From an uncultured Thermotogae bacterium (GTDB taxonomy: Bacteria; Bipolaricaulota; Bipolaricaulia; RBG-16-55-9; JAJCYT01): a DNA stretch of 64,000 nt. A model generated the notes under the pieces. It did not search any database. It was given only the letters and a program-made list of their open reading frames with translations, and was not told the origin of the DNA. A program made the translations under genes and the position numbers. Of this stretch, positions 973 through 59,182 are shown in pieces. The stretch lies in assembly GCA_964572855.1 (NCBI GenBank), contig CAZNGF010000002.1:30551-94550 (forward strand). Direction: 5' to 3'. Numbering within the stretch: position 1 is the first letter of the stretch; each line of letters opens with the position of its first letter.

Positions 973-1330
973 TGGTGGAGGTGGCGGGAATCGAACCCGC
1001 GTCCGAAAACGTATCCGCTCGGCATCTACAGGCTTAGCTCCGCGTTTTGGCCTGAGACCGCTCGCTCCCACGGAGCGGGATCAAGCGGTCCGGTCCTCCT
1101 GAAAGTCCCGGCGGCGCCGGAGGCAAGCGACGCCGGCAAGCACCTGTTGTCTATGTCCGTCGGTTCCCTAGGTGCAGCGGGTTCCGGGGACAGCCCTTCC
1201 TTAGTTCAGGGAAGGAGCGGCAAACGCTAGTTCGTTGCCAGTTATTGGTGTGATTGCCGGATTAAGGAGCGGACAATCGCGCTCCGCCTGCAGCCTCGGT
1301 TCAACGTTCCCGTCGAAGCCGTTCACCCCC
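973..1330 (-). ncRNA. ssrA: Transfer-messenger RNA (tmRNA, ssrA).
   Basis: On the minus strand the 5' end reads GGGGGTGAACGGCTTCGACGGGAACG…, the canonical tmRNA 5' end. The 3' end reads …GGACGCGGGTTCGATTCCCGCCACCTCCACCA, a tRNA-Ala-like T-arm and acceptor with encoded CCA. An internal tag reading frame, …GGC AAC GAA CTA GCG TTT GCC GCT … TAA, begins after the region that would correspond to the first pseudoknot. Length is ~358 nt. Confidence 0.8.
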
Positions 1331-1435: not shown

Positions 1436-2839
1436 ATGCGCATCCTCCGGACGCTCTACACGTGGCGCTGGCTCCTGCTGGGCTTCGGCCTCGGCGCGCT
1501 GCTGGTCGCGCTCCCGACGCCCGAGGGCCTGAGCGTGGCAGGGCAGCGCACGCTGGCCATGGCCGTGGTGGCCACGCTCTTTTTCATCACCGAGCCGGTC
1601 CCGCTGCCGGCGGTCGCGCTTCTAATCGCCGTGTTTCAGGTTCTGTTGGGCCTCGGCAGCGGCAACGAGGTGGCCCGCTCCTTCATGAGCGACTCGGTCT
1701 TCTTCATCATGGGCTCGCTCATGATCTCGGTCGCGCTCGTGAAGCAGAAGCTCGACCGGCGCATCGCCTACGGCATCATGCGCGCCACCGGGCCCGACGT
1801 GCTGCGCATCCTGTTCGGGTTCACGGCCGTCTCTGCCCTGCTGTCCTCGCTCATCGGCGAGCACACCGTCGCCGCCATGATGCTCCCGGTCGCCCTGGCC
1901 ATCCTGGGCCACGTGCGCCACGAGACCCCGGACGTGCGCGGGTTGGCCGCCGTGTTGCTGTTCGCGATCGCCTACGGCACGGCCATCGCCGGCATCGGAA
2001 CCCCGTCGGGCGGCGCGCGCAACGCCATCATGATCGACTACTGGCGCCAGCTCGCCGACGTCGAGGTGAGCTACCTGCAGTGGATGGCCTACGCCTACCC
2101 GCTGGTCGTCGTCCAGATCCCGCTGCTCATCGGCGTGCTCTGGTGGACTTTCAAGCCCGAGGTGCGCGACATCCGCCGGGCGCTCGTGCGCCTGCGCCGA
2201 GAGGTCCATTCCGAGGGCGGCCTCAATCGCCAGGATAAGGCCGTCATCGCGGTCTTCCTGCTCACCATGCTCGGCTGGGTCACGATGAGCGAGTCGCTCG
2301 GTTTGGGGATCGTCGCGCTCAGCGGGGCGACGCTCTACCTGCTGTTCGGGCTCGTGCGCTGGGAGGACCTCAACGGGGGTGTCAACTGGGGCGTCGTCTG
2401 GCTCTACGCGGCCGCCATCTCGCTCGGCGTCCAGATGAAGAACTCCGGCGCGGCGCAGTGGGTGGCGGAGAACTTCCTGGCGCTGCTGGCGACCGTCAAC
2501 ATGGACAGCGGATTCCCCCTGCTCATGGCCCTCAGCGTGCTGGCCGTGCTCGTGACGCACACCATGAGCGCCGGCGCGGCCGTGGCCGTGCTCGGTCCCG
2601 TCACGCTGCAGATCGCCTCGCTCTCGGGTGACAGCTTGCTGTTGGCGGGCTTTGCCACGGCCATCGGCTCGGCGTTTGCCTACATGGTGGTGGCCAGCCA
2701 TCCCTCGCCCGCCATCATCTACTCCAGCGGTTACCTGAAGACGCGCGACTTCCTGCGGGTCGGTGCGCGCATGGCCGTCGTCTCGTTGCTCGTGCTCTGG
2801 CTGGCCATGGCGGTATATTGGCCTTTGCTGGGAACCTGA
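1436..2839 (+). CDS. DASS/SLC13-family anion:Na+ symporter (CitT/ArsB-like permease superfamily).
   Basis: 467 aa, polytopic membrane protein. The repeated architecture and motifs are typical of divalent anion:sodium symporters, e.g. PSGGARNAIM and a 'SNT'-like segment MSAGAAVAVL. A large antisense ORF at 1622..2701 is rejected. Confidence 0.75.
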   Translation: MRILRTLYTWRWLLLGFGLGALLVALPTPEGLSVAGQRTLAMAVVATLFFITEPVPLPAVALLIAVFQVLLGLGSGNEVARSFMSDSVFFIMGSLMISVALVKQKLDRRIAYGIMRATGPDVLRILFGFTAVSALLSSLIGEHTVAAMMLPVALAILGHVRHETPDVRGLAAVLLFAIAYGTAIAGIGTPSGGARNAIMIDYWRQLADVEVSYLQWMAYAYPLVVVQIPLLIGVLWWTFKPEVRDIRRALVRLRREVHSEGGLNRQDKAVIAVFLLTMLGWVTMSESLGLGIVALSGATLYLLFGLVRWEDLNGGVNWGVVWLYAAAISLGVQMKNSGAAQWVAENFLALLATVNMDSGFPLLMALSVLAVLVTHTMSAGAAVAVLGPVTLQIASLSGDSLLLAGFATAIGSAFAYMVVASHPSPAIIYSSGYLKTRDFLRVGARMAVVSLLVLWLAMAVYWPLLGT

Positions 2840-2840
2840 G

Positions 2841-3797
2841 GTGGTTGAAACCGTGTTCCGAAAAACCGTGATCCCGATCGCCTACCTGCCGACCTCGGCC
2901 GCGACCTTGCGCTGGGGGGCACGGCTCACGCGTCGCCTCGGCAGCGACCTTACCGTGCTCTACACCGCGCAGGCCGCCCAGCAGGGCCCGCTGCACGCCA
3001 GCCTGGCGGCCGAGAAGATGTCCGAATGGGGGGTCGAACCGCCCAGCTTCGGTATCCTGCGCGAGGCCGAGGACGTGCTCAAGGCCGAGGGCGCGCTCAT
3101 GCTGGACGCCCGGGGACGGGTGGTGGAACGGCACGCCTTCAAGGCCGTCGACCGCGGCCTCTACGAGGTGCACGCGCGCGGCCCGCAAGGCGAAAACGTG
3201 CGCTTCCGGCTGCGGGAGGGTGCGGTCGTGAGCCAGATCCTGCAGGAAGTTGAGGACCCGTCCTACGACCTCATCTGCGTGGGCACCCGCGGCCGGCGCG
3301 GCTTCCGGCGCCACCTGCTGGGGAGCATCGCGCAGGACGTGGCCATGCACGCGCCGTGCTCGGTGCTGGTCGCCAAACACCTGGACCAAATCGAGCGGGT
3401 GCTCGTCGGCGTGACCGGCCGTGAGAGCTCGCGCGAGGCGTTGCGCCAGGCCGCCCAGCTGAGCCGCGCGCTCGAGCTCCCGCTCGAGCTCATCGCCATC
3501 TTCCCGAGCCCGGAACAGCGCGACGCCGCGGAGCAGAACCTCGCGGCGGGCATAGCGCTGGCCCGCGAGCTGGGCGTCGCTGCCACGCCGCGTCTCGAGC
3601 GCGGCGACCCCGCCCGGGTGCTGATCCACACCGCACTCGAGGGCACGCTGCTCGCGCTGGGGCGCACGCCGCTCTCGATGGTGCAAAAGTTCTTCCTCGG
3701 CGACACCTCGATCAAAGTTCTGGATCAAGGCCGGTGCTCGGTTCTCATTGCCGTCCCCCCCCGCCAGCCCGTGGAGGAAGACCGAACCGACGATTGA
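2841..3797 (+). CDS. Universal stress protein, tandem UspA domains.
   Basis: Two Usp-like halves are present. Each ends in the characteristic G(T/S)RGRRG…LGS(I/V)A…V…HAPC(S/P)VL(V/I) ATP-binding motif: LICVGTRGRRGFRRHLLGSIAQDVAMHAPCSVLVAKH, and a second, more degenerate C-terminal half LLALGRTPLSMVQKFFLGDTSIKVLDQGRCSVLIAV. The GTG start at 2841 is chosen because it lies just after the transporter stop at 2837-2839; the track ORF (from 2763) overlaps that gene. Confidence 0.65.
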   Translation: MVETVFRKTVIPIAYLPTSAATLRWGARLTRRLGSDLTVLYTAQAAQQGPLHASLAAEKMSEWGVEPPSFGILREAEDVLKAEGALMLDARGRVVERHAFKAVDRGLYEVHARGPQGENVRFRLREGAVVSQILQEVEDPSYDLICVGTRGRRGFRRHLLGSIAQDVAMHAPCSVLVAKHLDQIERVLVGVTGRESSREALRQAAQLSRALELPLELIAIFPSPEQRDAAEQNLAAGIALARELGVAATPRLERGDPARVLIHTALEGTLLALGRTPLSMVQKFFLGDTSIKVLDQGRCSVLIAVPPRQPVEEDRTDD

Positions 3798-3901
3798 GAC
3801 CCTTCGGCCCCGGCCGAGATCGGCACATGTCGGCTCGACCCGGGACAGACTTCGGCGCGCCCGCCAGCCCCCGTCCTCGTCCGCGGCGGACCGCTCCCGC
3901 T

Positions 3902-6820
3902 ATGCTGCGTCACCGTGACAAGGGGGGATCGGGAGTCGTGCGCACAAGCGTTTATCGTTTCGCGGGGGTGTCGCTTGCCGCCGTGCTAGTACTGACGGCG
4001 TGGGGGCAGCCTGCCGTTGGCGCCGACGCCCAAGTCTCGCTCGTCGCGCTCAACCGCACGGTGCGGGCCGACCCCGGCGCCTTCGTGACCCTGACCTTCC
4101 AGCTTCGGAACGAGGGCGATGCGGCCGTCGAGGTCCAACTGACCGCCGATATGCCGCCCGGATTGTCGCTCTTGGGTGGGCTCCCCGCGGTCATGCTCGC
4201 GGGCGCCTCGATCGAAAGCCTGTTCGTCACCGTCATCGTGAGCCGGGAAACCGAGGCGGGGCCGGCCATCGTTGCCTTGACTGCACGCATCGCGGGGGGA
4301 ATGGCGCGCGCCGAGGCGACCGTCGACGTCGAGCGCGTGGCCGGCCTTAGCTTGCGCCCTCCCCCGGATGGCTCGGCCGAGCCCGGCCAGTCCATCACGC
4401 TCGAATTCGGCGTAACCAACGACGGCAACGGCCCCGACCGGGTCGCCTTGGACGTGGACGCCCCGGCGGCGGTACAGGTCGCACCGACAAGCGCCTCGCT
4501 TACGCTGCTCGCGGGCGAAACCCGCCGGCTTGCGGTCACGCTGACCGTGCCGGCCGAAACCGACCTGCCGCGGGTTCGCGTCACGCTCGTGGCCAGCTCC
4601 ACCAGTTTCCCGACCGTGAGCGCTCGGGCAACGACCACGCTCGACGTGCTCCCTCCGCTGCCCGAGGCCGTGGGCGGGCGCCTCGTGCTCGAGGTGCCCA
4701 GCACCTTCGCGCTGGGGCCGACCGTCCTCCCCAACCGCGACGTCCCGCTGGTGCTCACGGCCAGTGTGGCGGGCGCGGCCGACTTCGACGACGGGGACCG
4801 CATCGACTATCGCCTCGCGCTCGACAACCTGGCCGTGCGCGACCTGCGTTTCGAACTGCGCCGCGGCGCGGTCGAGACCCGACTGGGTCGGCTCGCTGTG
4901 ACCTGGACCGAACTGATCGATCAAGCCGGAGACGGTGCTCAGCTCACGCTCGAGGGCCTGCCGTTGCAGGGGGCCGTGAGCCTGGCTGCGCTGCTCGACG
5001 GGCTCTGGCCCCGCGTGGGGACCCAACTCGGCGCGGATGTGGTCGGTATGCGACTCCAACTCAGCCAGCTCGCCCGCTTCGACCCCGAAGGGCGGGTCTG
5101 GCTCGGGTCGCTCTCGCTTACGCAATCCGTGGGCGAGGCGATTCGGTTAGGCAGCGAATGGGCACTCAGCCAAGCCGATACCGGGGAACGGGTTTGGGGC
5201 AACGTGATCCGTTTCGACTGGGAGGGGGACGACTTCCGCGTCGACGGCGAGTGGATCCGAACCGACGCGGCTTTCCTCGGCGACCGGCCCGGCCGGCGCG
5301 GGTTCCGGCTCGCCCAAGCGCTCGAGCACGACGATGTGGCCGTGCAGCTCGCCTACAGCCGCGTTCTCGATCAGGGGAACGTCTCAGGGACGGGCGCCCT
5401 GCTCGAAACCGCCTGGCGCTCGTCCCTGCGCTGGACGCCCTCGAGCCCGTGGCCTTCGTGGGTCGCACGCCTGGACTTCGACGGGGCGCACGCCCCCCCC
5501 AACCTGGGACAGTCAAGCCGCCTGCTGGCCAGCCTGGGGATGCGCCAGGAGATCGCTCCCCTCTCCCTCGGTGCCACTGCCAGCCGGCTGTCGTCGGTGG
5601 ACGCCACGGGCGCGCACGACGACTTGACGCTTCGCGCCGAGGCGGCGGTGGACCTGGCGCCGGCCCGTCTACTCCTGCGGGCCGGACAGACGCTTGCCGT
5701 CTCCCCGCTGCACGTCGCCCCGTCCCCCGCCGGCACCGAGCTGCTGGCCGCCCTGCAGCTCACCGGGGCGCTCGGGCGGGGGGCACTCTCCCTCCTGCTG
5801 TTGGGTGACGTGGTCACGGTCGACGCCGTGCTCGACTTACAAACGGGCCCCCTGCGCGCCGCAGCCGAGTTGGAACTCGAGCTCGACGCCGCCGGCCTGC
5901 TGAGCGCCGAGGCGCGCGCGGAACTCTCCGTGGCCTTCAACGCGCCGGTCGCCTTCATCCCGGTGGGCGGTCGGGTGACAGGGGTCGCCTTCGAGGACGC
6001 CAACCAGAACGGCCTCCGCGACTCCGACGAGGCTGGCATCGCCGACCTCGTGTTCCGCGTCGGCGACGCACGCGTCCGCACCGATGCGGAGGGACGCTAC
6101 CGCACGCCGCCGCTCTCCCCCGGGGCCTACGAGATCCGTCTAAACGCGCTCCCGCTCGAACTCGTCGCCGGACCCGTTCCCGGAACAGTCACCGTGAGCG
6201 CGGGGGAAACGAAACGGGCCGACCTGCCGCTCAACCGCGTGGGCGTCGTGCGCGGCGTCGTCTTTGACGACCGCGATCAAGACGGCATTCGGGACGCCGA
6301 CGAAGCCGGGCTGGAAAACGCGGTCGTGGACCTGCGTGGCGCGGGCCGCACCGCCCCCGGACGCACGGATGACCAAGGCCGCTTCAGCTTCAGCGGACTG
6401 GCCCCGGGGTCCTATCGCCTGACCCTCGATGTCTCCGCGCTCCCGCCCCGCAGCGAGCTCACCACCCCCGACACGATCGCGTTCACGCTTTCGCCGGGCC
6501 AAACCGTGGAAGCGGCCTTTGGCGCCTACCAAAGGCCGCGGGCCATCCGTTTCGTCCCGACCGCCACCTTCACCGTCTCTCCCGAGCTCCCGCAAGCGGG
6601 GGAACCCGTTACCTTTAACGGAAGCAACTCCTTCGATCCCGACGGGCGCGTCGTCGGCCACGCGTGGGATCTGGATGGAGACGGTCAAGCCGACGCGGAA
6701 GGCGCAACGGTCACGCGGACCTATGACCTGCCAGGCACCGTCCGCGTGACGCTCACCGTCCGCGACGACCAGGGGAACACGGACAGCTTAAGCCAAGACG
6801 TCGTGATCGCCGCGCCCTAG
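3902..6820 (+). CDS. Large secreted surface/adhesin-like protein carrying CARDB-like, Cna-B/SdrD-B-type (carboxypeptidase-regulatory-like) and C-terminal PKD domains.
   Basis: A signal peptide (…VYRFAGVSLAAVLVLTAWGQPAVGADA) is followed by repeated ~100-aa beta-sandwich modules with NDG/NEG motifs (CARDB-like). Two tandem repeats are of SdrD-B / Cna-B type: GRVTGVAFEDANQNGLRDSDEAGIADLVFRV…DAEGRYR and GVVRGVVFDDRDQDGIRDADEAGLENAVVDL…DDQGRFSF. The C-terminus (FNGSNSFDPDGRVVGHAWDLDGDGQ…VTLTVRDDQGNTD) is PKD-like. The start could be ATG 3902 or GTG 3938; the track start at 3734 runs through an R/P-rich, non-protein-like N-terminus. Confidence 0.7.
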   Translation: MLRHRDKGGSGVVRTSVYRFAGVSLAAVLVLTAWGQPAVGADAQVSLVALNRTVRADPGAFVTLTFQLRNEGDAAVEVQLTADMPPGLSLLGGLPAVMLAGASIESLFVTVIVSRETEAGPAIVALTARIAGGMARAEATVDVERVAGLSLRPPPDGSAEPGQSITLEFGVTNDGNGPDRVALDVDAPAAVQVAPTSASLTLLAGETRRLAVTLTVPAETDLPRVRVTLVASSTSFPTVSARATTTLDVLPPLPEAVGGRLVLEVPSTFALGPTVLPNRDVPLVLTASVAGAADFDDGDRIDYRLALDNLAVRDLRFELRRGAVETRLGRLAVTWTELIDQAGDGAQLTLEGLPLQGAVSLAALLDGLWPRVGTQLGADVVGMRLQLSQLARFDPEGRVWLGSLSLTQSVGEAIRLGSEWALSQADTGERVWGNVIRFDWEGDDFRVDGEWIRTDAAFLGDRPGRRGFRLAQALEHDDVAVQLAYSRVLDQGNVSGTGALLETAWRSSLRWTPSSPWPSWVARLDFDGAHAPPNLGQSSRLLASLGMRQEIAPLSLGATASRLSSVDATGAHDDLTLRAEAAVDLAPARLLLRAGQTLAVSPLHVAPSPAGTELLAALQLTGALGRGALSLLLLGDVVTVDAVLDLQTGPLRAAAELELELDAAGLLSAEARAELSVAFNAPVAFIPVGGRVTGVAFEDANQNGLRDSDEAGIADLVFRVGDARVRTDAEGRYRTPPLSPGAYEIRLNALPLELVAGPVPGTVTVSAGETKRADLPLNRVGVVRGVVFDDRDQDGIRDADEAGLENAVVDLRGAGRTAPGRTDDQGRFSFSGLAPGSYRLTLDVSALPPRSELTTPDTIAFTLSPGQTVEAAFGAYQRPRAIRFVPTATFTVSPELPQAGEPVTFNGSNSFDPDGRVVGHAWDLDGDGQADAEGATVTRTYDLPGTVRVTLTVRDDQGNTDSLSQDVVIAAP

Positions 6821-6848
6821 CTGCTTCCATCCCATCGCGCATATATGC

Positions 6849-6876
6849 GTCTAGAATGGTTGCCATTAGGTATACT
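6849..6876 (+). promoter_or_regulatory. Copy 1 of a promoter-like motif GTCTA-N15-GGTATACT, resembling a sigma-B-type -35/-10 pair.
   Basis: GTCTA at 6849-6853 and GGTATACT at 6869-6876. The same bipartite motif recurs at 8700-8728 and 9075-9102. It is followed by a strong SD (AAAGGAGGTG) and an ATG at 6905. Confidence 0.3.
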
Positions 6877-7121
6877 TGGAAAACGTTGAAAGGAGGTGTG
6901 ACCCATGCAGCGCCGCGTCGGACGCACGCAATCGCAGCGCGAGACAGCCCAAACGGCCCGTCTCCGTCGTGAGGTGTCCGTCGCGCGCAGCGGTGTCACG
7001 CCACCACAACCGCAAGAAACCTTGCACGTGGTCGCTAAGCGCCAGTTGGGGCTCATCGATCCGATGAGCGTGGTCTTATGTGGTTACGCGGGTCAAACCG
7101 ATCGTTTCTTCATGGAAGCAT

Positions 7122-7180
7122 CTACAAGGGCAAACCAAGCGAAAGCCTGGGGCGCAAAGCTACGGCCTTCTAGGTCCGCA
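7122..7180 (+). promoter_or_regulatory. Possible degenerate or partial upstream c-di-GMP-I (GEMM)-like aptamer, i.e. the 5' half of a tandem arrangement.
   Basis: The sequence aagGGCAAACCaagcGAAAGcctggGGCGCAAAGCtacgg closely matches the GEMM 5' half: GGCAAACC, then a P2 hairpin with a GAAA tetraloop, then GACGCAAAGCC. No convincing 3' half (ACAGCCGGG…ACCG) follows before the next aptamer begins. Confidence 0.3.
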
Positions 7181-7252
7181 CGAACAAGGCAAACCCGCCG
7201 CGAGGCGGCGACGCAAAGCCACGGGTCTCTTGCAGACAGCCGGGCTACCGTA
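7178..7252 (+). promoter_or_regulatory. c-di-GMP-I (GEMM) riboswitch-like aptamer in the 5' leader of the downstream secreted pilin-like gene.
   Basis: The sequence acaaGGCAAACCcgccGCGAggcgGCGACGCAAAGCCacgggtctcttgcagACAGCCGGGCTACCG carries the hallmark GEMM-I blocks. These are GGCAAACC, a P2 hairpin with a GNRA tetraloop, GACGCAAAGCC, and a P3 with a conserved 3' ACAGCCGGG(Y)UACCG. A near-identical arrangement is found at 9150-9222. Downstream, CCTAATG…CATTAGGAGG could form a hairpin that sequesters the RBS. Confidence 0.55.
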
Positions 7253-7307
7253 GCGTACCTAATGGTGGCAGAGCCGCTAGATGCGACATCATTAGGAGGT
7301 GCTTTTT

Positions 7308-7745
7308 ATGAAGAAAGTAAGCATGTTGTTTGCGACGTTTGCGGTGTTGGGCATGGTGACAATGGCCGTTTGGGCCGGCAACAGCGACAAGGCGCAGGTT
7401 GGCTTCTCGTTGGAGCAGTACTTTTCACTGGAAGTCAAAAACGGCGCCAACGTCGAGTTCGGCACGCTGGACGCCCTGGCCGGGCCGTTCGAGAAGAAAA
7501 ACGGTTCCGCGCTCAAGGTCGACAGCAACACGAGCTGGAGCATCAGCACCAGCAAAGCGGTGCTGACGAGCCCCAACGGCGCCAACGCCGACACCGTACT
7601 CAACGCCCTGGCCGTCTCGCTCGAAACCGAGAGCGGGATAGGCAAAGACGCGGACATCAAGGTGGATTACGCCTTGGACAACCTCGAGGACCTGCCCACG
7701 GGTGACTATGTCGTCGAGGTGACGTTTACGGGTAGCACCAAGTAA
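7308..7745 (+). CDS. Small secreted protein (145 aa), paralog of the 9233..9748 product. Putative donor-strand pilin-like subunit (SCPU/CsuA/B-like).
   Basis: RBS AGGAGGTG precedes ATG 7308, and the signal peptide is MKKVSMLFATFAVLGMVTMAVWA. The mature N-terminus has an alternating-hydrophobic strand (QVGFSLEQYFSLEV). The C-terminus, …KVDYALDNLEDLPTGDYVVEVTFTGSTK, resembles the G-x-Y-x-D-T-L-x-V-T-V-x-F ending of SCPU/Csu pilins. It is clearly homologous to the second paralog (SNTSWSIS…/SNAPWVVN…; VDYALD…GDYVVEV / VDYRVR…GDYALDL). Confidence 0.6.
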   Translation: MKKVSMLFATFAVLGMVTMAVWAGNSDKAQVGFSLEQYFSLEVKNGANVEFGTLDALAGPFEKKNGSALKVDSNTSWSISTSKAVLTSPNGANADTVLNALAVSLETESGIGKDADIKVDYALDNLEDLPTGDYVVEVTFTGSTK

Positions 7746-7789
7746 CCCACATAAGGCTGCCACATAGGACCACTGCTGCAAGCAAGCAC

Positions 7790-7819
7790 GCGGGGGCGGG
7801 TCAAGCGACCTGCCCCCGC
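7790..7819 (+). terminator. GC-rich hairpin, candidate intrinsic terminator after the pilin-like gene.
   Basis: GCGGGGGCGGGTC-aagc-GACCTGCCCCCGC forms a 13-bp stem with one G·U pair. It lies 45 nt after the stop at 7745. The 3' U-tract is weak (ctcattg). Confidence 0.4.
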
Positions 7820-7923
7820 CTCATTGTCCCCGACCGCCCAAGGTCATCGTCGTTACAGGGGGGCCTGCGTGGGTACGCTAGAATTGGGTACAATCTCCGT
7901 ATCCACCCCGCTCCCGGAGGCTT

Positions 7924-8697
7924 TTGGCGATGGATTCAGAACAACTTCTTGCGCAACTGGCTCGGCTGCACGCCCAAGCCGCGCCGCAGGATCAAATCCT
8001 CAAGCTCAAGGAGGAGCTCGTTGAGGCCAACGTCGGCCTCGTGACCTCGATAGCCAAGCGCTTCGTCCACTCCGGCGAACCCTTAGAGGATCTCGTTCAG
8101 GCCGGCTACATCGGCCTCCTCAACGCCGTCCACAACTTCGACCTCAACCGCGGCACCAAGTTCTCGACTTACGCCACTTACCTCATCCAGGGCGAAATCC
8201 GGCACCACATCCGCGACAAGAACACCACCATCCGCCTGCCGCAGTGGCTTCAAAAGCTGAGCCAACAGGTCAAGCGCGCCGAGGAGCGTTTCTATCAGGA
8301 ACACGGACGCCTGCCCACCATCGCCCAGCTTTCCGACGCCCTCAACATCGAGGAGGACGGCATTCGAGAAGCCCTCAAGGCCCGCGAAGCGCTTCATTAC
8401 GTCTCCATCGATGCCGAGCGTCGAGAAGAGGATCCCCGTCCCCTCGCCTTCGACCCGAGCAAGATCCGCAGCAAACACCCGGACGAGTTCCCGATCGAGT
8501 ACAGGATTAAGATCGCCTCCGCCATCGAGACGCTCACCGACCTGCAACAGCGCGTCATCAACGACCTCTTCTACGCCGGCAAATCCCAAGCCCAGGTGGG
8601 CCAGGAGGTCGGTTACTCCCAGCGCCACATCTCCCGCATCAAGCAAGAGGTCCTCGATGCCATCAGGGGAGAATTCGACGAGCAGGACCCCGAATAA
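7924..8697 (+). CDS. RNA polymerase sigma factor, sigma-70 family group 3 (SigB/SigF/SigG-like).
   Basis: 257 aa. Region 2 (DLVQAGYIGLLNAVHNFDLNRGTKFSTYATYLIQGEIRHHIRDK) and region 4 HTH (QRVINDLFYAGKSQAQVGQEVGYSQRHISRIKQEVLDAIRGEF) are recognisable, with no region 1.1. A GGAGG RBS lies 10 nt upstream of the ATG. A TACAAT -10-like hexamer is at 7889-7894. Confidence 0.85.
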   Translation: MAMDSEQLLAQLARLHAQAAPQDQILKLKEELVEANVGLVTSIAKRFVHSGEPLEDLVQAGYIGLLNAVHNFDLNRGTKFSTYATYLIQGEIRHHIRDKNTTIRLPQWLQKLSQQVKRAEERFYQEHGRLPTIAQLSDALNIEEDGIREALKAREALHYVSIDAERREEDPRPLAFDPSKIRSKHPDEFPIEYRIKIASAIETLTDLQQRVINDLFYAGKSQAQVGQEVGYSQRHISRIKQEVLDAIRGEFDEQDPE

Positions 8698-8699
8698 GG

Positions 8700-8728
8700 T
8701 CTACGCGCCCGCGCTTCTAGGTATACTC
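8700..8728 (+). promoter_or_regulatory. Copy 2 of the GTCTA-N16-GGTATACT promoter-like motif.
   Basis: GTCTA at 8700-8704 and GGTATACT at 8721-8728. It lies 36 nt upstream of ATG 8764. Confidence 0.35.
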
Positions 8729-8763
8729 CCAAGCAACGATGGGACGCGGACGGAAGGACGCCC

Positions 8764-9057
8764 ATGAGTGATACCGCCAACGCGGACGATCGGGGGGAGT
8801 TCCTCGTGACACTGCTCAGCGACGTCAACAGCGCCATTAGCGAACTGGTCGACCTCAGCGTCGCCTGGTCGAACGGCGACTTCCCGCGCGCCCACGCCAA
8901 GTGCGACTTGGTTTTCGCGCGACTCGAGCGCGCCGCCGCGGCCGCCCAGGGAGAAGCAACCCGTTCGGCGCGTGCCCAACGTTACCTCCACCAGCTGGAC
9001 GACGTTCGCGACCAACTGACCCCGCTGCGCCCCATCCTCGCCAACCGCATCGGTTAA
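8764..9057 (+). CDS. Hypothetical protein (97 aa), acidic N-terminus, no recognisable domain.
   Basis: ORF directly downstream of the sigma factor gene and behind motif copy 2. The composition is protein-like (MSDTANADDRGEFLVTLLSDVNSAISELVDLS…). No signal peptide. Confidence 0.45.
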   Translation: MSDTANADDRGEFLVTLLSDVNSAISELVDLSVAWSNGDFPRAHAKCDLVFARLERAAAAAQGEATRSARAQRYLHQLDDVRDQLTPLRPILANRIG

Positions 9058-9074
9058 GCCTTCATCCCGTGAAT

Positions 9075-9102
9075 GTCTAACTCGGCCGCTTCCAGGTATA
9101 AT
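9075..9102 (+). promoter_or_regulatory. Copy 3 of the GTCTA-N15-GGTATAAT promoter-like motif, directly upstream of the second riboswitch leader.
   Basis: GTCTA at 9075-9079 and GGTATAAT at 9095-9102. The predicted TSS lies ~9108-9110 at the conserved leader element TTACCGCGGTCAAA, which is also present at 7084-7098. Confidence 0.4.
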
Positions 9103-9149
9103 CATTACCGCGGTCAAATGCCGCCGTGAAGAAGCCACAGCTTCACATC

Positions 9150-9222
9150 GCGAAAAAGGTAAACCCGCCGCGAGACGGGGACACAAAGCCACGGGTCTCT
9201 AGAAGACAGCCGGGCCGCCGAA
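9150..9222 (+). promoter_or_regulatory. c-di-GMP-I (GEMM) riboswitch-like aptamer, second copy.
   Basis: The sequence aaaaaGGTAAACCcgccGCGAgacgggGACACAAAGCCacgggtctctagaagACAGCCGGGCCGCCG has the same block order as the 7178-7252 copy. Differences sit at loop or compensatory positions (loop cttgc vs ctagaag). The aptamer ends 11 nt before ATG 9233 and directly abuts the RBS (GAAGGGGTGAAGC-ATG), which is consistent with translational control. Confidence 0.55.
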
Positions 9223-9232
9223 GGGGTGAAGC

Positions 9233-9748
9233 ATGAGACACGCAAACCTTAGCTTGCTCGCGCTTGGCGCGCTGCTCGTTTTCGTCGGCGGCTTTTGGGC
9301 CGATGGTGCAACCCAGACCGAGGTCGTTTTTCACCTCGCGCCGTTTCAAACCCTCTCGCTGGCGGACGGACCCTTCGGTGCGCGCACCGCTTACAGCGTG
9401 CACATCCCACAGCCCAGCGCGCGCGAACTCGCCCGCGGTCACGTCGACGTTCCGGGGGCGGTCACCCTCAACGTCCACAGCAACGCCCCGTGGGTCGTCA
9501 ACGTCCGCGCCCTCAGTCCGGACATGGGCCACAGCGACGACGGCGCCGTCACCAAGCCACTCGCCGACTTTCAACTCCGCGCCGCAAATCGCCCCTACAT
9601 CACACTCGATACCCAAGACCAACGACTCATCCAGGGAGACCACGGACGCTTCTCCTTCGAGGTGGACTACCGCGTCCGCTTCGACCCACGCACCCATCGC
9701 GACGGCGACTATGCGCTCGACCTCCTCTACACCATCACCAGTCGCTGA
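9233..9748 (+). CDS. Small secreted protein (171 aa), paralog of 7308..7745. Putative SCPU/Csu-like donor-strand pilin subunit.
   Basis: Signal peptide MRHANLSLLALGALLVFVGGFWA. Homologous blocks to paralog 1 are present, including the C-terminal …FEVDYRVRFDPRTHRDGDYALDLLYTITSR. The gene is preceded by riboswitch copy 2. Confidence 0.6.
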   Translation: MRHANLSLLALGALLVFVGGFWADGATQTEVVFHLAPFQTLSLADGPFGARTAYSVHIPQPSARELARGHVDVPGAVTLNVHSNAPWVVNVRALSPDMGHSDDGAVTKPLADFQLRAANRPYITLDTQDQRLIQGDHGRFSFEVDYRVRFDPRTHRDGDYALDLLYTITSR

Positions 9749-9802
9749 CCTATGTGGACGTGCGTCCTTGCCGCTGCGCTCAGTTCCCGCCAAACTGACC
9801 TC

Positions 9803-10840
9803 ATGAAGCCGCCCATCTACCTACTCATCGCCGCAGTGGTCCTGATTGTTGTCGCCCCGCCGGCCCAGGCGCTTCGCCTCTCCCGAATCGAGTTCGACCT
9901 CTCCCTCCCGCCCGGCGCGCGGGAAACCTTTTCCTTCCACGTTTTCAACGACGAGGCGGAGGAAACCACCGTTTCGCTCTCGCTGGCCGACTGGGATCGA
10001 ACGCTCGACGGCGAGAATCGTTTCTTCGAGCCCGGCACCAACGCGCGCTCGGCCAGCGATTGGATCACCTTCGCCCCCAACCAGTTCACCCTCGCGCCCG
10101 ACGAAACCGCCGAGGTCCGCTTCACCCTCAACGTCCCCCCCGACGTCCGCGGCACCCACTGGGCAGCCCTCTTGGTCGAAGGCTCGCCGCGCGAGGTCGA
10201 CACCCAGGGCGGGACCACCATCCTCGTTCGCCGCCGTTTCGCCGTCAAGATCCTGCAAACCCCTCCCGACACCGGGGCGCAGGACATACGGCTCCTCGGG
10301 CTCGACGTCGCGGGCCTTAACCCCCTTACCGTTCACCTTCGCGTCCGCAACGCCGGCACGCGCAACCTCGCCGCCGTCAAGGGCCGCCTCGAGCTGCGCG
10401 ACCAAACCGGCACGCTCGAATCCGTCCCCATCGAGGACTTTCCCATGCTTCCCGGCGCCGAGCGGCGCGTCACCGTCGCCAGCAAACGCTTCCGCAACGA
10501 GCCCTTCCCCGCCGGCCGCTTCCTCGTCCTCGCCATCCTAGATTTCGGCGGGGACGACCTGCTCGGCGGCCAGCTCAACCTCAACGTCCCAGCTATCCAG
10601 CTCGCCCCCCTGGAGCCTCAATTGTCACTGCCTCAGGACCTCGACCGGGACGGTCTGTTCGAGGATGTCAACGGAGACGGCCAACTGACCGACGACGACC
10701 CCGTCCTCCTCGGCTTCCACTTGGACAATCCGGCCGTCCTCGACAACCATCGCCTCTTCGATTACGACAACGACGGCGACGTGGACTTCGACGACGTGCT
10801 CGCCCTCCGCGCCCGCGTCGAAACCCAATCCGACGCCTAA
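9803..10840 (+). CDS. Secreted protein with an N-terminal fimbrial-chaperone-like (PapD-like Ig-fold?) region and a C-terminal dockerin-type Ca-binding repeat pair.
   Basis: The preferred start is ATG 9803, which gives the signal peptide MKPPIYLLIAAVVLIVVAPPAQA. An alternative ATG at 9752 lies 3 nt after the pilin stop. The N-terminal segment RIEFDLSLPPGARETFSFHVFNDEAEETTVSLSLADW resembles the chaperone N-domain pattern. The C-terminus DVNGDGQLTDDDPVLL…DYDNDGDVDFDDVLAL is a dockerin / EF-hand-like duplicated D-x-N/D-x-D-G motif. Confidence 0.5.
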   Translation: MKPPIYLLIAAVVLIVVAPPAQALRLSRIEFDLSLPPGARETFSFHVFNDEAEETTVSLSLADWDRTLDGENRFFEPGTNARSASDWITFAPNQFTLAPDETAEVRFTLNVPPDVRGTHWAALLVEGSPREVDTQGGTTILVRRRFAVKILQTPPDTGAQDIRLLGLDVAGLNPLTVHLRVRNAGTRNLAAVKGRLELRDQTGTLESVPIEDFPMLPGAERRVTVASKRFRNEPFPAGRFLVLAILDFGGDDLLGGQLNLNVPAIQLAPLEPQLSLPQDLDRDGLFEDVNGDGQLTDDDPVLLGFHLDNPAVLDNHRLFDYDNDGDVDFDDVLALRARVETQSDA

Positions 10841-10949
10841 GCCCTCCAGCTGTCCGCTAGACGAATGCCCGCCGCCTGACGGACTTGCGTCCCTGTGCTC
10901 CCGACTCCCCCGCGTTACATTGCACACAACATTGGGAAGGAGGACAATC

Positions 10950-11495
10950 ATGCGAAAGGTGTATTCCTGTTTAGCCCTGCTATTGCTTGCCGTTTCCCTC
11001 GTCTCAGCAGTCCCCACAGACGCCTATGCCCGCGACGGTGCGGCCGGCGGCGTCTTCTTCGATCCGGCCGGTGGTCTCTCCGACGGCGGCGTGCTCCCCA
11101 TGACCCGTCTAGTACTCGGCAGCGGCTTCACCGTTGCTCATCTCGACATCCTCTTCGGCATCTCCACCGCGTCCATCCCCAACCCGGGCGTTCGCTTCCT
11201 CCCGTATTGGGTCTTGAACTTCCCGCTCAAGTTCAGCTCCCTGGCCGTTCTCACACCATACTTTGGGGTCTCCCCGGTCCTCTTCACCACCAGCGCACTC
11301 GCCGTGCCGCCTGCCGCCGACTGGATCTTCAAGTTCGGCACCACCTTTACCTTCGGCGGTTTTGGCTTTTTCGCAGAAACCGGCTTCTTCGTCCCCTTGG
11401 CCTCGTTCCCGGCCTTCGCCGTAGGCTTCAGTGTCGATTTCGAATCCATGGATTCCCTCTTTTGCGACACGTGCATCGACGAATCCGTCTACTGA
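10950..11495 (+). CDS. Hypothetical secreted protein (181 aa), Gly/Phe-rich beta-rich C-terminal half.
   Basis: RBS GGAAGGAGG precedes the ATG. Signal peptide MRKVYSCLALLLLAVSLVSAVPTDAYA. No recognisable domain. It is the last gene of the accessory cluster. Confidence 0.5.
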   Translation: MRKVYSCLALLLLAVSLVSAVPTDAYARDGAAGGVFFDPAGGLSDGGVLPMTRLVLGSGFTVAHLDILFGISTASIPNPGVRFLPYWVLNFPLKFSSLAVLTPYFGVSPVLFTTSALAVPPAADWIFKFGTTFTFGGFGFFAETGFFVPLASFPAFAVGFSVDFESMDSLFCDTCIDESVY

Positions 11496-11620
11496 GTTCC
11501 GCCCGTACCGCAGAGCTTGCCGGCGCCGCCCGCAGCCGCAACCTCCCCTTGGGCAAGCTCCCCCAACGCGCCCGCTCGCCCCGTTTGCCGTCGCCATCGG
11601 GTCCGCCTACAATCCACGCC

Positions 11621-12646
11621 ATGGCCAATCGCAAATCCCACACCCCCGACCTCTCAACCGAACAGCGACGCTCGCTCCACCGTTGGATGCGCCTCGGCCG
11701 CCTCCTAGACGAACGCCTCCTCAAGCTCCAGCGCCAGGGCCGGATCGCCTTCTACGGCACTGCAACCGGCGAAGAAGCCGCCGTCGCCGGCAGCGCCTTC
11801 GCCCTCTCCCCAGATGACTGGATCTTCCCCGCACTTCGCCAAGGCCTCGCCGCCCTCATGCGCGGCATGCCTCTCGACGCGTACATCGCCCAGTGCATCG
11901 GAAACGCAAAGGACGTGGCGAAAGGACGCCAGATGCCCGTCCACTACGCCTATCGGGCCGCCAATTTCGTCTCCTGGAGTAGCTGCATCGCCACCCAGCT
12001 TCCCCATGCCGTCGGCATGGCTTATGCCGCCCGTCTCAAAAGACACGAACGCGTCGCACTCGCTTACCTCGGTGACGGTGCCACCTCCGAGGGCGACTTT
12101 CACGTCGCCATGAATTTCGCCGGCGTCTATCGCCTTCCCGTCGTCTTCTTCTGCCAGAACAACCAATGGGCCATCTCCGTCCCAATCGAACGCCAAACCG
12201 CCTCCGCCAACATAGCAGCCAAGGCGGCCGCCTACGGCTTTCACGGCACCCGAATCGACGGGAACGACGTGCTGGAAGTCTATCGAGCCACCCGAAAAGC
12301 CGTACTCAAGGCACGGGCCGGCCAAGGCCCCACCCTCATCGAGGCCGTCACCTACCGCGTCGGCAGCCATTCCTCCTCTGACGATCCCACCCGCTACCGC
12401 GACCCCGCCGAACACGAAGCCAGGAGCGCCAAGGACCCGATTTCAGCATATCGCGAAAAACTCATCGCCGACGCCATCTGGGATCCCGATCGCGAGCTAC
12501 AGCTCACCCAGGCCCTGGACCAACAAATCACCCGCGCCATCCGAGCGGCCGAAAACGCACCCTCCCTGCCACCACACACCCTCTTCACCGACGTCTTCGC
12601 CCAACCTCCCGCCTCGCTGACCAAACAGCAAAGCCAACGCACCTAA
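11621..12646 (+). CDS. Thiamine-diphosphate-dependent 2-oxoacid dehydrogenase E1 component, alpha subunit (PdhA / BkdA-like).
   Basis: TPP-binding motif region (…YLGDGATSEGDFHVAMNFAGVYRLPVVFFCQNNQWAISVP…), 341 aa. A TACAAT hexamer sits ~10 nt upstream of the ATG. The track ORF 10895..12646 carries a spurious R-rich N-terminal extension. No E1-beta, E2 or E3 gene follows. Confidence 0.8.
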   Translation: MANRKSHTPDLSTEQRRSLHRWMRLGRLLDERLLKLQRQGRIAFYGTATGEEAAVAGSAFALSPDDWIFPALRQGLAALMRGMPLDAYIAQCIGNAKDVAKGRQMPVHYAYRAANFVSWSSCIATQLPHAVGMAYAARLKRHERVALAYLGDGATSEGDFHVAMNFAGVYRLPVVFFCQNNQWAISVPIERQTASANIAAKAAAYGFHGTRIDGNDVLEVYRATRKAVLKARAGQGPTLIEAVTYRVGSHSSSDDPTRYRDPAEHEARSAKDPISAYREKLIADAIWDPDRELQLTQALDQQITRAIRAAENAPSLPPHTLFTDVFAQPPASLTKQQSQRT

Positions 12647-12708
12647 ACCCCTTGCTTTTCCCCTATCCCGCTCGTTAACCTAGGCCAAACAACTACCTGG
12701 AGGCACAC

Positions 12709-13203
12709 ATGCGCCCCACATTCATTGCAATCCTAGCCTCGGTCACCCTCAGCCTCGCCGCACCCCACGCTCAAGCCCAGTCGGTGTCTATCCTTCAACC
12801 CCTCCAAGACGCAACCGTCTGGGGCAGTCAGGTCACGGTACGTTGGACCTCCGACGACGCCGAGAACGCCGCCGAAACCACACAAACCCACTATCACCTC
12901 TTCCTGACAAAGGGCATCCAAACCGAACTGAACCTTCAACCCGACGAACCCATCGGCTCCGAAGCCATCCACACCACAGAAGAATCGCACACCTACACGG
13001 ACCTCTCCGCAGGCACATACACCTTTCACGTGGCCCTAGCCGACGAAAACCACGTTCCCCTCGAACCAAACGCCATCGCGACCGTCCAATTCAAAGTCCG
13101 CACCCCGGACGAACGTCCCACCGCAGACCTCCCCAACTGGCTCATCGTAACCGGCGTGGGCGTACTCCTCTTGGGAGCGGTCCTACTCACGCGTACCTTT
13201 TAA
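12709..13203 (+). CDS. Hypothetical exported protein with an Ig-like/beta-sandwich feel and a C-terminal membrane anchor.
   Basis: Signal peptide MRPTFIAILASVTLSLAAPHAQA and a C-terminal hydrophobic segment LIVTGVGVLLLGAVLL. No family recognised. Confidence 0.5.
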   Translation: MRPTFIAILASVTLSLAAPHAQAQSVSILQPLQDATVWGSQVTVRWTSDDAENAAETTQTHYHLFLTKGIQTELNLQPDEPIGSEAIHTTEESHTYTDLSAGTYTFHVALADENHVPLEPNAIATVQFKVRTPDERPTADLPNWLIVTGVGVLLLGAVLLTRTF

Positions 13204-13371
13204 GGCAAATTCGCATACAGGGGGGCGGGGAAGGGAGGCATGAACCCAAAACAAAAACATGCCTCCCTTCCCCGCCTCCCGAATACCCATCGCACACTGC
13301 CGACCAAGCTTCGTTTGACACGGGACGACACCGACCATACCCTATGCTCACTCCACCCAAGGAATGAAACC

Positions 13372-14316
13372 GTGGATAAACCAATCCTTATCTCCGGCAA
13401 CGCAAATCCCGAACTCGCTTCCGAAATCGCAACGCACCTCGAACTTCCCCTCTGCAACGCAAGCATCCGCCGTTTCGAGGATGGAGAAATCAGCCTCTAC
13501 ATCAGCGAAACAGTCAGGGGGCATAACGTCTACGTCCTTCAACCCACCTGCCCCCCCGTCAACGACAACCTCATGGAACTCCTGCTCATCATCGATGCCC
13601 TCCGCCGCGCATCCGCTCGCCAAGTCACGGCCGTCATTCCCTACTTCGGATATGCAAGGCAAGACAGAAAACACATCGGAAGGGTTCCAATCAGCGCCAA
13701 ACTCGTCGCAAACTTGATCACAACGGCCGGCGCCCACCGCGTCCTCACCCTTGACCTTCACGCAGGCCAAATCCAGGGATTCTTCAACATCCCGGTTGAC
13801 AACTTGCGACCCGACTACATCCTCGCCAATCATTTCCGCGACCTTCAAAGCGACCCGAACACCGTCATCGCCACCCCCGACATCGGCGGCGTCAAACGAG
13901 CCCGACAGCTAGCCGAACGCCTCAACCTCTCCCTCATCATCGTCGAGAAAAGACGCCTCTGGCAACAAGAACAAACCGAGGTCATGAACGTCATCGGCGA
14001 CGTCGGCGGCAAAAAGGTCCTCCTCGTGGACGACATCCTCGCCTCGGGTGGCACCATCGTCAACGCCACCAAGGCCCTCCTCGCCAGCGGAGCACGCGAG
14101 ATCTGGGCCGCCTGCACCCACGCCGTCTTCTCTTCAGGCGCCCTTCAAAAGCTCAACGACTCCCCTCTCAAACGCCTCGTCGTCACCAATTCCATTCCCG
14201 CCCGGCACGACGAAACACCCCTCGTCCAGCGCATCTCCATCGGCAAGCTGTTCGCCGAAACCATCAAACGGATCGACCATGGCGAGTCCGTCAGCAAGCT
14301 CTTCCCGCACGACTAA
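13372..14316 (+). CDS. prs: Ribose-phosphate pyrophosphokinase (PRPP synthetase).
   Basis: Canonical Prs motifs are present: RRFEDGEISLYISETVRGHNVYVLQ, the PRPP-binding loop VLLVDDILASGGTI, and DLHAGQIQGFF. GTG start at 13372 (VDKPILISGNANPELA…). Confidence 0.85.
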   Translation: MDKPILISGNANPELASEIATHLELPLCNASIRRFEDGEISLYISETVRGHNVYVLQPTCPPVNDNLMELLLIIDALRRASARQVTAVIPYFGYARQDRKHIGRVPISAKLVANLITTAGAHRVLTLDLHAGQIQGFFNIPVDNLRPDYILANHFRDLQSDPNTVIATPDIGGVKRARQLAERLNLSLIIVEKRRLWQQEQTEVMNVIGDVGGKKVLLVDDILASGGTIVNATKALLASGAREIWAACTHAVFSSGALQKLNDSPLKRLVVTNSIPARHDETPLVQRISIGKLFAETIKRIDHGESVSKLFPHD

Positions 14317-14463
14317 CCCCCTCGGCTTGACGTTCACTGATCCTTTCCGGTATACAAGATCAAAAAGGGCAAGCCAACTGCCATTCAACACCGCCCAAAA
14401 CCCACCGAGGAGGTGAGCGCTTCGCACTTCCAATCGTCTGCCCAACACATCAAGGAGGTTGCC

Positions 14464-15531: not shown

Positions 15532-15545
15532 TCAAGGAGGTTCCC

Positions 15546-16859: not shown

Positions 16860-16946
16860 ACAAAGGCGTGACCACCACAACCGACACCGATCATACGTGC
16901 CGGGAAGGCCTGCTCCCGTGGGCCTTCCCGGTCTTCTAGGAGAACC

Positions 16947-18811: not shown

Positions 18812-18815
18812 ACCC

Positions 18816-19799: not shown

Positions 19800-20050
19800 C
19801 GCTAAAACGTCATTCCCGTTTCACAAGCAGATCCCTGCGCGAGTTAAACGTAGAGGCGAGCAGCCCGCGCACGAAAGGCGCGTAGCGGGATGACAAGCGA
19901 GAGCGAACAAGGGCTGGGGTAAAGGGCGGGACGCGTCAGGCCTCGTCGTAGGGCAGGCTGCTCGAAGCGCACCGTCGGGATGGAGGCGCGCCCTTCCATG
20001 TAGGGCTTTGCCACGCGGTCCATCACGCGCCCTGGGGAAAGGAAAAGTAC

Positions 20051-59106: not shown

Positions 59107-59182
59107 GTCCCCATCGTCTAGCGGCCTAGGACACCGCTCTTTCAAGGCGGCGGCGGGGGTTCGAATCCCCCTGGGGACGCCA
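59107..59182 (+). tRNA. tRNA-Glu (anticodon UUC).
   Basis: GTCCCCATCGTCTAGCGGCCTAGGACACCGCTCTTTCAAGGCGGCGGCGGGGGTTCGAATCCCCCTGGGGACGCCA. The acceptor stem pairs GTCCCCA with TGGGGAC, the anticodon loop is CTTTCAA, and CCA is encoded. A TATAAT hexamer lies ~15 nt upstream. Confidence 0.9.

Follow-up and report, generated by a model that had tools for sequence, protein, structure and literature searches.

A conserved Bipolaricaulota and Fraserbacteria gene cluster encodes riboswitch-preceded, secreted Ig-like proteins that are candidate subunits of a strand-exchange fibre

A 64,000-nucleotide (nt) stretch of DNA from an uncultured Thermotogae bacterium (GenBank assembly GCA_964572855.1, contig CAZNGF010000002.1, positions 30,551 to 94,550 of the forward strand; Bipolaricaulota in the GTDB lineage), referred to here as the window, carries a gene cluster built around two open reading frames (ORFs), A and B, for small secreted proteins, each preceded by an aptamer of the cyclic di-GMP (c-di-GMP)-I clan. 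Gene A (7308-7745) encodes a 145-amino-acid (aa) single-domain immunoglobulin (Ig)-like protein that we propose to be a pilin-like subunit, and gene B (9233-9748) encodes a 171-aa paralogue with loops longer than those of A; public assemblies record the same gene calls of 145 and 171 aa. Sec-type signal peptides are present on both proteins, with cleavage sites placed by eye between VWA and GN in A and between FWA and DG in B. A 1028-codon gene for a large secreted multi-domain protein (3734-6820) lies upstream of A. A and B are separated by genes for a SigB/F/G-type sigma-70 family sigma factor (7930-8697) and a 97-aa cytoplasmic helical protein without a Pfam match (8764-9057). Downstream of B lies gene C (9803-10840); its 345-aa secreted product has a tandem pair of Ig-like domains followed by a type I dockerin at the C-terminus. 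All of these features are on the plus strand.

The earlier note on this DNA, made from the sequence alone, had described the products of 7308-7745 and 9233-9748 as paralogues, and both the ORFs and the relationship were confirmed. Direct comparison of A with B by BLASTP was marginal (21% identity, E=0.02), and hhalign comparison of two small alignments gave a full-length match with E=4.3e-4 and a probability of 34%. Word-indexed searches recovered 5 relatives for A and 2 for B, and a scan of genome contigs with B recovered no relative. When 1.84 billion proteins were searched exhaustively by HMMER, the A alignment recovered 75 cluster representatives at E<=1e-3, nearly all of them secreted, 135-175 aa in length and bearing the same motifs. 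Paralogy was tested with a family hidden Markov model (HMM) of 55 members from which B-type sequences had been excluded. B scored 33.3 bits against this model (E=2.8e-12 for one comparison), and A and B were the sole matches among 529 window ORFs of at least 60 aa (E=1.5e-9 for B). Mature B, with its signal peptide removed, scored 26.8 bits, compared with a best score of 5.7 bits among 1000 shuffled sequences. The three blocks aligned in the earlier note proved to be those aligned by BLASTP, hhalign and HMMER, namely the N-terminal strand, SNxxW, and (V)DY...GDYxxxxx[FY]T. B-type orthologues were found in loci L004, L005 and L007 (related loci carry L numbers).

Across a 57-sequence alignment of the family, W77 was invariant, and G110, Y121, G132 and T141 were at least 90% conserved. 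One strand carries an invariant W-x-[ILV] and the last strand [FY]-T-x, and conservation is strongest in the N-terminal and C-terminal strands. Neither A nor B had a Pfam match at E<=1 or any NCBIfam match. A Pfam scan of the 57 members returned Peptidase_M73 (E=0.0065), DUF4402 (E=0.034) and WxL (E=0.066) in one member each, and the NCBIfam model NF058581 (CPR_Pam_pilin_C) weakly matched four members (best E=0.0016), leaving A and B themselves unmatched. The protein family is new, in that no library names it. A third, divergent subfamily of 143-159-aa secreted proteins, with an N-terminal region containing SVSRTATVSLSIPALSVLSLP, was observed in L026-L036 (for example, L033 5681-6200). These genes have their own aptamer directly 5', sit upstream of the main family member and score 12-23 bits against the family HMM. 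Two family representatives among the database ORFs, P0041 and P0055, begin MANRG..RGAKLRPLR, which is translated aptamer sequence; gene callers had therefore placed these starts within the riboswitch.

The 5' leaders of A and B have approximately 75 nt in common. Comparison with Rfam, with the gathering score of 59 bits as the threshold for acceptance, identified full-length c-di-GMP-I-clan (CL00126) aptamers, covering model positions 1-80 of 80, at 7179-7253 (70.0 bits, E=1.6e-14) and 9149-9223 (76.2 bits, E=2.7e-16). These end 54 nt before the A start codon and 9 nt before the B start codon. That both genes sit behind such aptamers had gone unmentioned in the earlier note. The top-scoring model for both was RF03167, the "GGC" variant, as is usual in the related loci. 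Orthologous aptamers were found 5' of A-type genes in L002 and L003 and of B-type genes in L004 and L005, with compensatory changes visible between orthologues. As read from the alignment, the window aptamers have GCAAAG or ACAAAG, with A where the "GGC" model has G. Both contain a G before a GC/GU pair, an A within GC-A-AAGCC or AC-A-AAGCC, and a C before the 3' side of P1, positions that we take to be G20, A47 and C92 of Vc2. Because this nucleotide pattern is canonical, c-di-GMP is the expected ligand of the window aptamers.

In the window and related loci combined, 59 c-di-GMP-I-clan aptamers reached the gathering score, and 54 of these lie directly 5' of a family ORF. Many of them are arranged in tandem, and one cluster can hold as many as five; full tandem aptamers were found in L010, L017, L020, L021, L044 and L048. 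Directly 5' of the full aptamer of A lies a half aptamer (7120-7168), truncated to the first hairpin, which scored 33.3 bits and whose sequence is also kept in L002. It may be a tandem remnant, a tandem partner or a functional half-site. The expression platform of A (7254-7307) is conserved in L002 and L003, and its minimum-free-energy fold contains a hairpin in which ACCUAAUGG (7257-7265) pairs with CAUUAGG (7290-7296). This hairpin would cover the Shine-Dalgarno sequence GGAGG (7295-7299) that lies 5' of the ATG at 7308. In the B leader, P1 extends with its 3' side into the Shine-Dalgarno region (AAGGGGUGA), 10 nt 5' of the ATG. The layouts of the two leaders point to translational control as the predicted mode of regulation.

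Two departures from this arrangement were observed among the related loci. The aptamer of the A-type orthologue in L002 (2913-2987) reads GU in place of the AC of the window aptamer immediately 5' of the P1 3' strand, and so has U at the position that we take to be C92 of Vc2; this change could alter ligand preference. In L042 (5357-5449, minus strand) and L047 (5447-5537, minus strand), an opposite-strand c-di-GMP-I aptamer precedes a gene for a large secreted protein of more than 450 aa and no family member.

An AlphaFold2 model of A computed from the 57-sequence alignment had a pLDDT of 88.7 and a pTM of 0.74; a model from six close homologues was poor (pLDDT 57) and was not used. The model is an Ig-like sandwich of six main strands with an unpaired, conserved N-terminal segment. 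Its strands span residues 39-45, 61-73, 76-87, 101-105, 109-111, 114-123 and 135-144, with a helix at 94-100. Residues 31-40 are confidently modelled, and the stretch before residue 39 is unpaired in the monomer. A Foldseek search of the PDB with this model ranked the fibril protein TLP-1a first (E=1.3e-3) and TLP-1b second (E=1.2e-2), with a TM-score of 0.53. CEP192 ASH domains, CS17, CfaB, the Csu pilus, TasA, CupE, PapG/A/E, SafA and FimA came next, and approximately three quarters of the rest of the top 50 were donor-strand pilins or chaperone complexes thereof. TasA (8AUR) and the Pyrobaculum bundling pilin (7UEG) were among the weak fold matches. When PDB sequences were searched with the family profile, TLP-1b (E=9e-4) and TLP-1a (E=5e-3) were the sole near-significant matches, spanning the N-terminal strand through the SNxxW strand. 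All of these matches to fibre subunits are individually weak, and they point in the same direction throughout. An hhalign comparison of the family with the fim, sfm, yad and elf pilins of Escherichia coli K-12 gave a probability of 58% over the N-terminal extension; this match was discounted because it vanished once the signal peptides were trimmed.

TLP-1a and TLP-1b (9IKJ and 9IKK) are fibrils of bacterial origin that were solved from pond water by CryoSeek and are assembled by donor-strand exchange; TLP-1 has strands beta2 to beta7, a helix that separates beta4a from beta4b, and a free donor strand at the N-terminus (PMC11494351). The order of secondary-structure elements in the A model agrees with this published topology. 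Both proteins have a cleaved signal peptide, a six-strand Ig-like core with a helix after the fourth strand, and a conserved N-terminal strand, which in TLP-1 is donated to another protomer. Mature A, at 122 residues, is about half the size of TLP-1 (about 236 residues) and accordingly is without the long outer loops of TLP-1, and sequence similarity between the two is limited to approximately 60 N-terminal residues. The nearest predicted homologue of TLP-1 comes from a Flavobacteriales bacterium, and, unlike for A and B, no riboswitch or cluster context is known for TLP-1. Conversely, TLP-1 is known as a polymer with n+4 strand donation, whereas A and B are known here from their genes and a monomer model.

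The gene neighbourhood of A and B is conserved well beyond the window. Short metagenomic contigs hold close A or B homologues with the same aptamers, followed directly by a C homologue; L003 has an A-type gene and then C (55% identity), and L004 has a B-type gene and then C (74% identity). A genome scan with the alignment of the C family (17 homologues) identified 38 loci. Their sources were metagenome-assembled genomes (MAGs) of Candidatus Bipolaricaulota/Acetothermia and Candidatus Fraserbacteria, several "uncultured Thermotogae" bins, one Thermotogota MAG, two unclassified "uncultured bacterium" MAGs and one Atribacteria bin. C adjoins one to three same-strand ORFs that match the family HMM at 30 of the 38 loci, a linkage that the earlier note had not mentioned, and at 23 of the 38, as well as in L009, an orthologue of the large protein lies directly 3' of C on the same strand. 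These counts define a recurring layout in which a riboswitch and small secreted protein gene, as a repeated unit, are followed by C, the large protein and sometimes a sigma factor. The window deviates from this layout, with its large gene on the upstream side of the cluster. A full-text literature search for Bipolaricaulota and c-di-GMP returned nothing on such a cluster.

The dockerin that the earlier note had placed in the neighbouring gene was upheld, since Dockerin_1 (PF00404) matched all 17 members of the C family (best E=3.4e-8). The window copy scored 13.4 bits, below the cut-off of 22.9, but the C-family profile matched the CelS dockerin structure (E=2.4e-6), and the two DxDxDG-like segments of the C dockerin are invariant in the family. 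The window C protein ends in this dockerin and has no C-terminal membrane helix. Its Ig domains gave sub-threshold matches to fn3_5 (10 of 17 homologues), WxLIP_PGBD (11 of 17), FixG_C and NEW3, the first domain being weakly WxLIP_PGBD/fn3_5-like; the best WxLIP_PGBD scores, of 19-22 bits, were below the cut-off of 27.3. PapD_N and PapD_C matched none of the 17 homologues, hhalign comparison of the C family with five E. coli chaperones gave a probability of 2%, and a search of PDB sequences with the two Ig domains returned nothing meaningful. NCBIfam fimbrial-chaperone models gave a collinear weak match in two or three C homologues (E=0.013-0.08), and a JGI record labels one C homologue "PapD". 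Most economically, C would be an envelope-tethered holder or anchor of A/B-type proteins.

Further dockerin proteins accompany the family elsewhere. Extra dockerin proteins, one with a PKD domain, lie between C and the large protein in L016 (9023-10189) and L017 (5994-7517). The distant cluster L050 (4363-9618), which has no riboswitch, contains the family member P0084 together with a Big_1 plus dockerin protein, a membrane-anchored cohesin protein, a C-like protein and a DUF2341 protein, so that a cohesin-dockerin pair accompanies the family outside Bipolaricaulota-type clusters. In the L050 C-like protein a C-terminal membrane segment replaces the dockerin, and WxLIP_PGBD matches with E=1.5e-4. 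A jackhmmer search that started from the L050 cohesin found no cohesin in the window or the Bipolaricaulota loci.

The earlier note had stated that no usher-sized gene was present nearby. This does not hold, since the 1028-codon ORF immediately upstream has an orthologue that is a conserved cluster member, and a large partner gene is therefore present; no similarity to ushers was detected in it. The likely true start of the product is the Met at 3902, just 5' of a signal peptide. Two NEW3/CARDB-like Ig domains, a central domain of about 420 aa, two SdrD_B/CarboxypepD_reg domains and a PKD domain were recognized in it. The central 425 aa had no Pfam match and no meaningful match among PDB sequences. 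Usher Pfam models matched neither the large protein nor its central domain, and hhalign comparison of 21 large-protein sequences with four E. coli ushers gave a probability of 0.2%. C and the large protein share generic CARDB/NEW3-type motifs only.

The product of 7930-8697 matched the sigma factor model TIGR02980 with E=1.6e-57, below the cut-off of that model, and matched Sigma70_r2, Sigma70_r3 and Sigma70_r4. Orthologues occupy the same position in L005-L008 and lie inside or beside the cluster in L009, L018, L025, L037 and L038. Homologues of the 97-aa protein travel with the sigma gene, being found 3' of it in L005-L008 and upstream of the B-type gene in L004; this protein may be a regulatory partner. 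The box TTCYAGGTATAMT occurs twice on the plus strand, at 8715-8727, approximately 37 nt 5' of the start of the 97-codon gene, and at 9090-9102, approximately 47 nt 5' of the aptamer of B. Two matches were reached in 2 of 100 shuffles, and the box is probably the -10 region of cluster promoters.

Comparison with other surface systems places the cluster among several partial likenesses. Pam pilins of candidate phyla radiation (CPR) bacteria assemble by donor-strand exchange, and their clusters share with A/B a non-proteobacterial host, several pilin paralogues, anchored two-Ig partners and the lack of a recognizable usher (bioRxiv 10.64898/2026.03.03.709456). However, the Pam pilin is a two-domain protein in which a linker joins a nine-strand N-terminal sandwich to a truncated Ig domain, whereas A and B have one domain, and Pam chaperones have a PapD/FimC-like predicted fold and a membrane-helix anchor, whereas C has no PapD signal and carries a dockerin. 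The Pam system is also reported to be exclusive to CPR bacteria and to lack a riboswitch. The WxL/WxLIP (DUF916-DUF3324) systems of Firmicutes comprise parts like those of the A/B cluster, with a small single-domain protein, a two-Ig partner and a large multi-domain protein (PMC9772566, PMC10599100), and a strand of the partner is predicted to insert into the small WxL protein (PMC10599100). WxLIP ends in a membrane helix and C in a dockerin, but the L050 C-like protein has such a helix and in this respect parallels both WxLIP and the anchored Pam chaperones. Unlike the hosts of WxL proteins, the phyla that host A and B are not Firmicutes with thick peptidoglycan, and WxL clusters are not known to be riboswitch controlled.

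Chaperone-usher pili share with the cluster the order of subunits, two-Ig protein and protein of approximately 1000 aa. Their pilins resemble A and B in subunit length (about 150 aa) and in having conserved N- and C-terminal strands, and many are among the weak fold matches; in contrast, the A/B cluster has no SCPU, Fimbrial, PapD or Usher profile match. The Gly 14 residues from the C-terminus and the aromatic residue of the last strand recall what we take to be the classical pilin C-terminal motif. TasA/TapA and the archaeal bundling pili are donor-strand fibres of biofilm matrices that are independent of chaperone and usher, and TapA is reported to be an accessory protein acting by strand complementation (PMC10151520). 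TasA is larger than A and B, the Peptidase_M73 model touches a single family member, and the cluster showed no gene for a SipW-type signal peptidase, in contrast to TasA systems. As with the c-di-GMP-I (GEMM-I) riboswitches of pili and adhesins, the aptamers here lie directly 5' of genes for surface structures, and tandem aptamers, which are common in the related loci, have been reported for the class (PMC9481103). The present case differs from known GEMM-I cases in that the regulated family is un-named and each paralogous subunit gene has its own aptamer.

On these grounds we give about an even chance to the proposal that A and B form a donor-strand-exchange fibre, with the cluster partners assisting and expression under c-di-GMP riboswitch and sigma-factor control. 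The data establish the paralogy, the riboswitches, the class of fold and a gene linkage kept in both phyla; we infer that the subunits polymerize through strand exchange, what C and its large partner do, that c-di-GMP is the ligand and in which direction it acts. The mechanism would be as follows. A and B, as paralogues, would serve as structural subunits of a fibre or surface assembly outside the cell, and the Sec pathway would export them with cleavage of the signal peptide. Each subunit would fold into an Ig-like sandwich short of one edge strand, and the next subunit would supply its conserved N-terminal strand (AQVGFSL in A, TEVVFHL in B) to close the gap, a donor-strand exchange as in TLP-1 fibrils. 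A c-di-GMP-I-type riboswitch would gate each subunit separately via ribosome access, and the cluster-encoded SigF-like sigma factor would probably add transcriptional control. C and the multi-domain protein of about 1000 aa would be obligate partners, C most likely holding or anchoring subunits in the envelope and the large protein serving as base, exporter or adhesive end. The more specific proposal of an undescribed Bipolaricaulota/Fraserbacteria pilus, assembled by donor-strand exchange without PapD or usher, equipped with a dockerin-anchored two-Ig helper, an envelope protein of about 1000 aa and per-gene riboswitches, and providing a home for TLP-1-like fibrils, is plausible to us at somewhat less than an even chance. 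Several points weigh against the fibre. The similarity to classical pilins is fragile, since the 58% hhalign match depends on signal peptides, and, the model of A being a monomer, an open groove and self-complementarity would be predictions of the fibre reading. The Ig domains of C resemble surface domains of the CARDB/NEW3/fn3_5 type and not PapD, the large protein has no usher similarity by Pfam or hhalign, and the top Rfam model is the "GGC" variant.

An explanation that we regard as unlikely, yet deserving of serious weight, is that A and B are non-polymeric parts of a surface complex resembling WxL-WxLIP, in which the first Ig domain of C permanently completes the sandwich with one of its strands and the dockerin provides the tether; c-di-GMP would then switch a surface coat and not a fibre. 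The equal parts list of WxL clusters, in which AlphaFold2 places a WxLIP strand in the WxL gap (PMC10599100), favours such a complex, as do the weak matches of WxLIP_PGBD (DUF916) to the first domain of C in 11 of 17 homologues (best E=1.2e-3) and the L050 C-like protein, where the same model matches and a WxLIP-type C-terminal membrane helix is present. The invariant W-x-[ILV] and the [FY]-T-x of the last strand are also WxL-like, and one family member matched Pfam WxL. However, the WxL HMM (PF13731) misses the other 56 of the 57 members, and all WxLIP_PGBD matches in the C family fall below the Pfam cut-off. Read by eye, the A sequence lacks the WxL signature (Asp at W-8, Arg at W-6, GTxAG and a second Trp; PMC9772566); it has W77-S-I, but L and V at W-8 and W-6 and F in place of W in the last strand. 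Self-polymerization better explains the conserved N-terminal strand and a TLP-1 match over exactly that strand, and several paralogous subunit genes in one cluster are typical of pili. These same paralogues, each with its own riboswitch, together with the tight association of C and the large protein with them across the phylum and the concentration of conservation in the N- and C-terminal strands, also argue against A and B being soluble secreted or periplasmic binding proteins with a complete Ig fold, which would engage in no strand exchange and would be tied to c-di-GMP through some other envelope function. The weakness of every fibre match speaks for such proteins, which we consider rather improbable.

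The earlier note had favoured pilins of the SCPU/CsuA/B type, assembled by donor-strand complementation. The donor-strand idea survives in part, since the model of A is Ig-like and its best matches are strand-exchange subunits, but its SCPU/Csu form fails. SCPU (PF05229) matched neither A, B nor any of the 57 members at E<=0.1, and DUF4402, also suggested for checking, matched one member (E=0.034) and neither A nor B. An archaic chaperone-usher system could still draw on that single DUF4402 match, the JGI "PapD" label and the two or three C homologues on fimbrial-chaperone models (E=0.013-0.08). Set against these are the absence of PapD from the 17 C homologues, the hhalign probabilities of 2% for C with chaperones and 0.2% for the large protein with ushers, the lack of an Usher Pfam match, and the ranking of TLP-1 above Csu in every search. 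The SCPU/Csu reading is largely refuted at the sequence level, and we hold it to be very improbable. We think it just as improbable that A and B, as cohesin-like modules, bind the dockerins of C and other proteins in a cellulosome-like scaffold, an alternative that the earlier note had also raised. Type I dockerins do occur on C and on further proteins of related clusters, no cohesin that might otherwise serve as the dockerin partner was found in the window or the Bipolaricaulota loci, and a true cohesin protein lies beside the distant family member in L050. Yet Pfam Cohesin (PF00963) matched none of the 57 members, the fold search gave cohesin no support, and the L050 cohesin is separate from the family member there, so that the family is no substitute for a cohesin.

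Bipolaricaulota (Acetothermia, OP1) and Fraserbacteria are uncultured phyla. c-di-GMP riboswitches ahead of pilus and adhesin genes were already known, and a growing number of strand-exchange fibres fall outside the chaperone-usher family, among them TasA, the archaeal bundling pili, TLP-1 and Pam. New here are the phylum-wide cluster, in which a dockerin-bearing partner accompanies a large protein of novel core, the use of one riboswitch per subunit gene, and the occurrence of such a cluster in phyla whose first closed genome reported no pili or adhesins. That genome, from Acetothermia, was described as free of flagellar, fimbrial, pilus and surface-adhesin genes and as having an atypical envelope without lipopolysaccharide genes, for which the choice between one and two membranes was left undecided (PMC6092417). 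The cluster would supply a candidate attachment or biofilm structure for Bipolaricaulota and Fraserbacteria, as well as a direct readout of c-di-GMP signalling, and A would be a compact, 122-residue addition to the strand-exchange fibres outside the chaperone-usher world. The matches reported here would link an orphan cryo-electron microscopy fibril fold, that of TLP-1, to a gene family whose genomic context is defined; if A and B do form a pilus, TLP-1-like pond-water fibrils would gain a sequence and a genomic home. The per-gene, often tandem aptamers represent unusually dense use of c-di-GMP riboswitches and would offer a clean system for examining how dinucleotide sensing sets fibre composition.

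The remaining observations concern the borders and surroundings of the cluster. The 181-aa secreted Gly/Phe-rich ORF 3' of C (10950-11495, plus strand) has no Pfam match and was seen, among the loci examined, in L001 (the window's own contig copy) only; its membership in the cluster is uncertain, and housekeeping genes come next beyond it. In L009 (4264-6572), a 428-aa protein with a weak P-loop NTPase match and a 305-aa beta-rich protein ending in Phe, as in outer membrane barrels, flank the cluster. Homologues of this pair occur in L011, L014, L025, L037 and L038, just 5' of the sigma gene and cluster, and the pair is absent from the window. The window ORFs at 1436-2839 and 2763-3797, considered as possible cluster parts, were unrelated to these flanking proteins and were therefore placed outside the cluster. 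The ORF at 12709-13203 (plus strand) encodes a 164-aa secreted protein that matches DUF4399 below threshold and has a hydrophobic segment at its C-terminus; it falls outside the A/B family. A transfer-messenger RNA gene lies at 973-1330 (minus strand; 163.7 bits), and a tRNA gene at 59107-59179 (plus strand). Comparison of the region with plasmids by megablast gave no match. The G+C content is 0.60-0.65 over positions 6001-20000, compared with approximately 0.70 in the flanks, and the GC skew is strongly negative from about 8 to 20 kb of the window.

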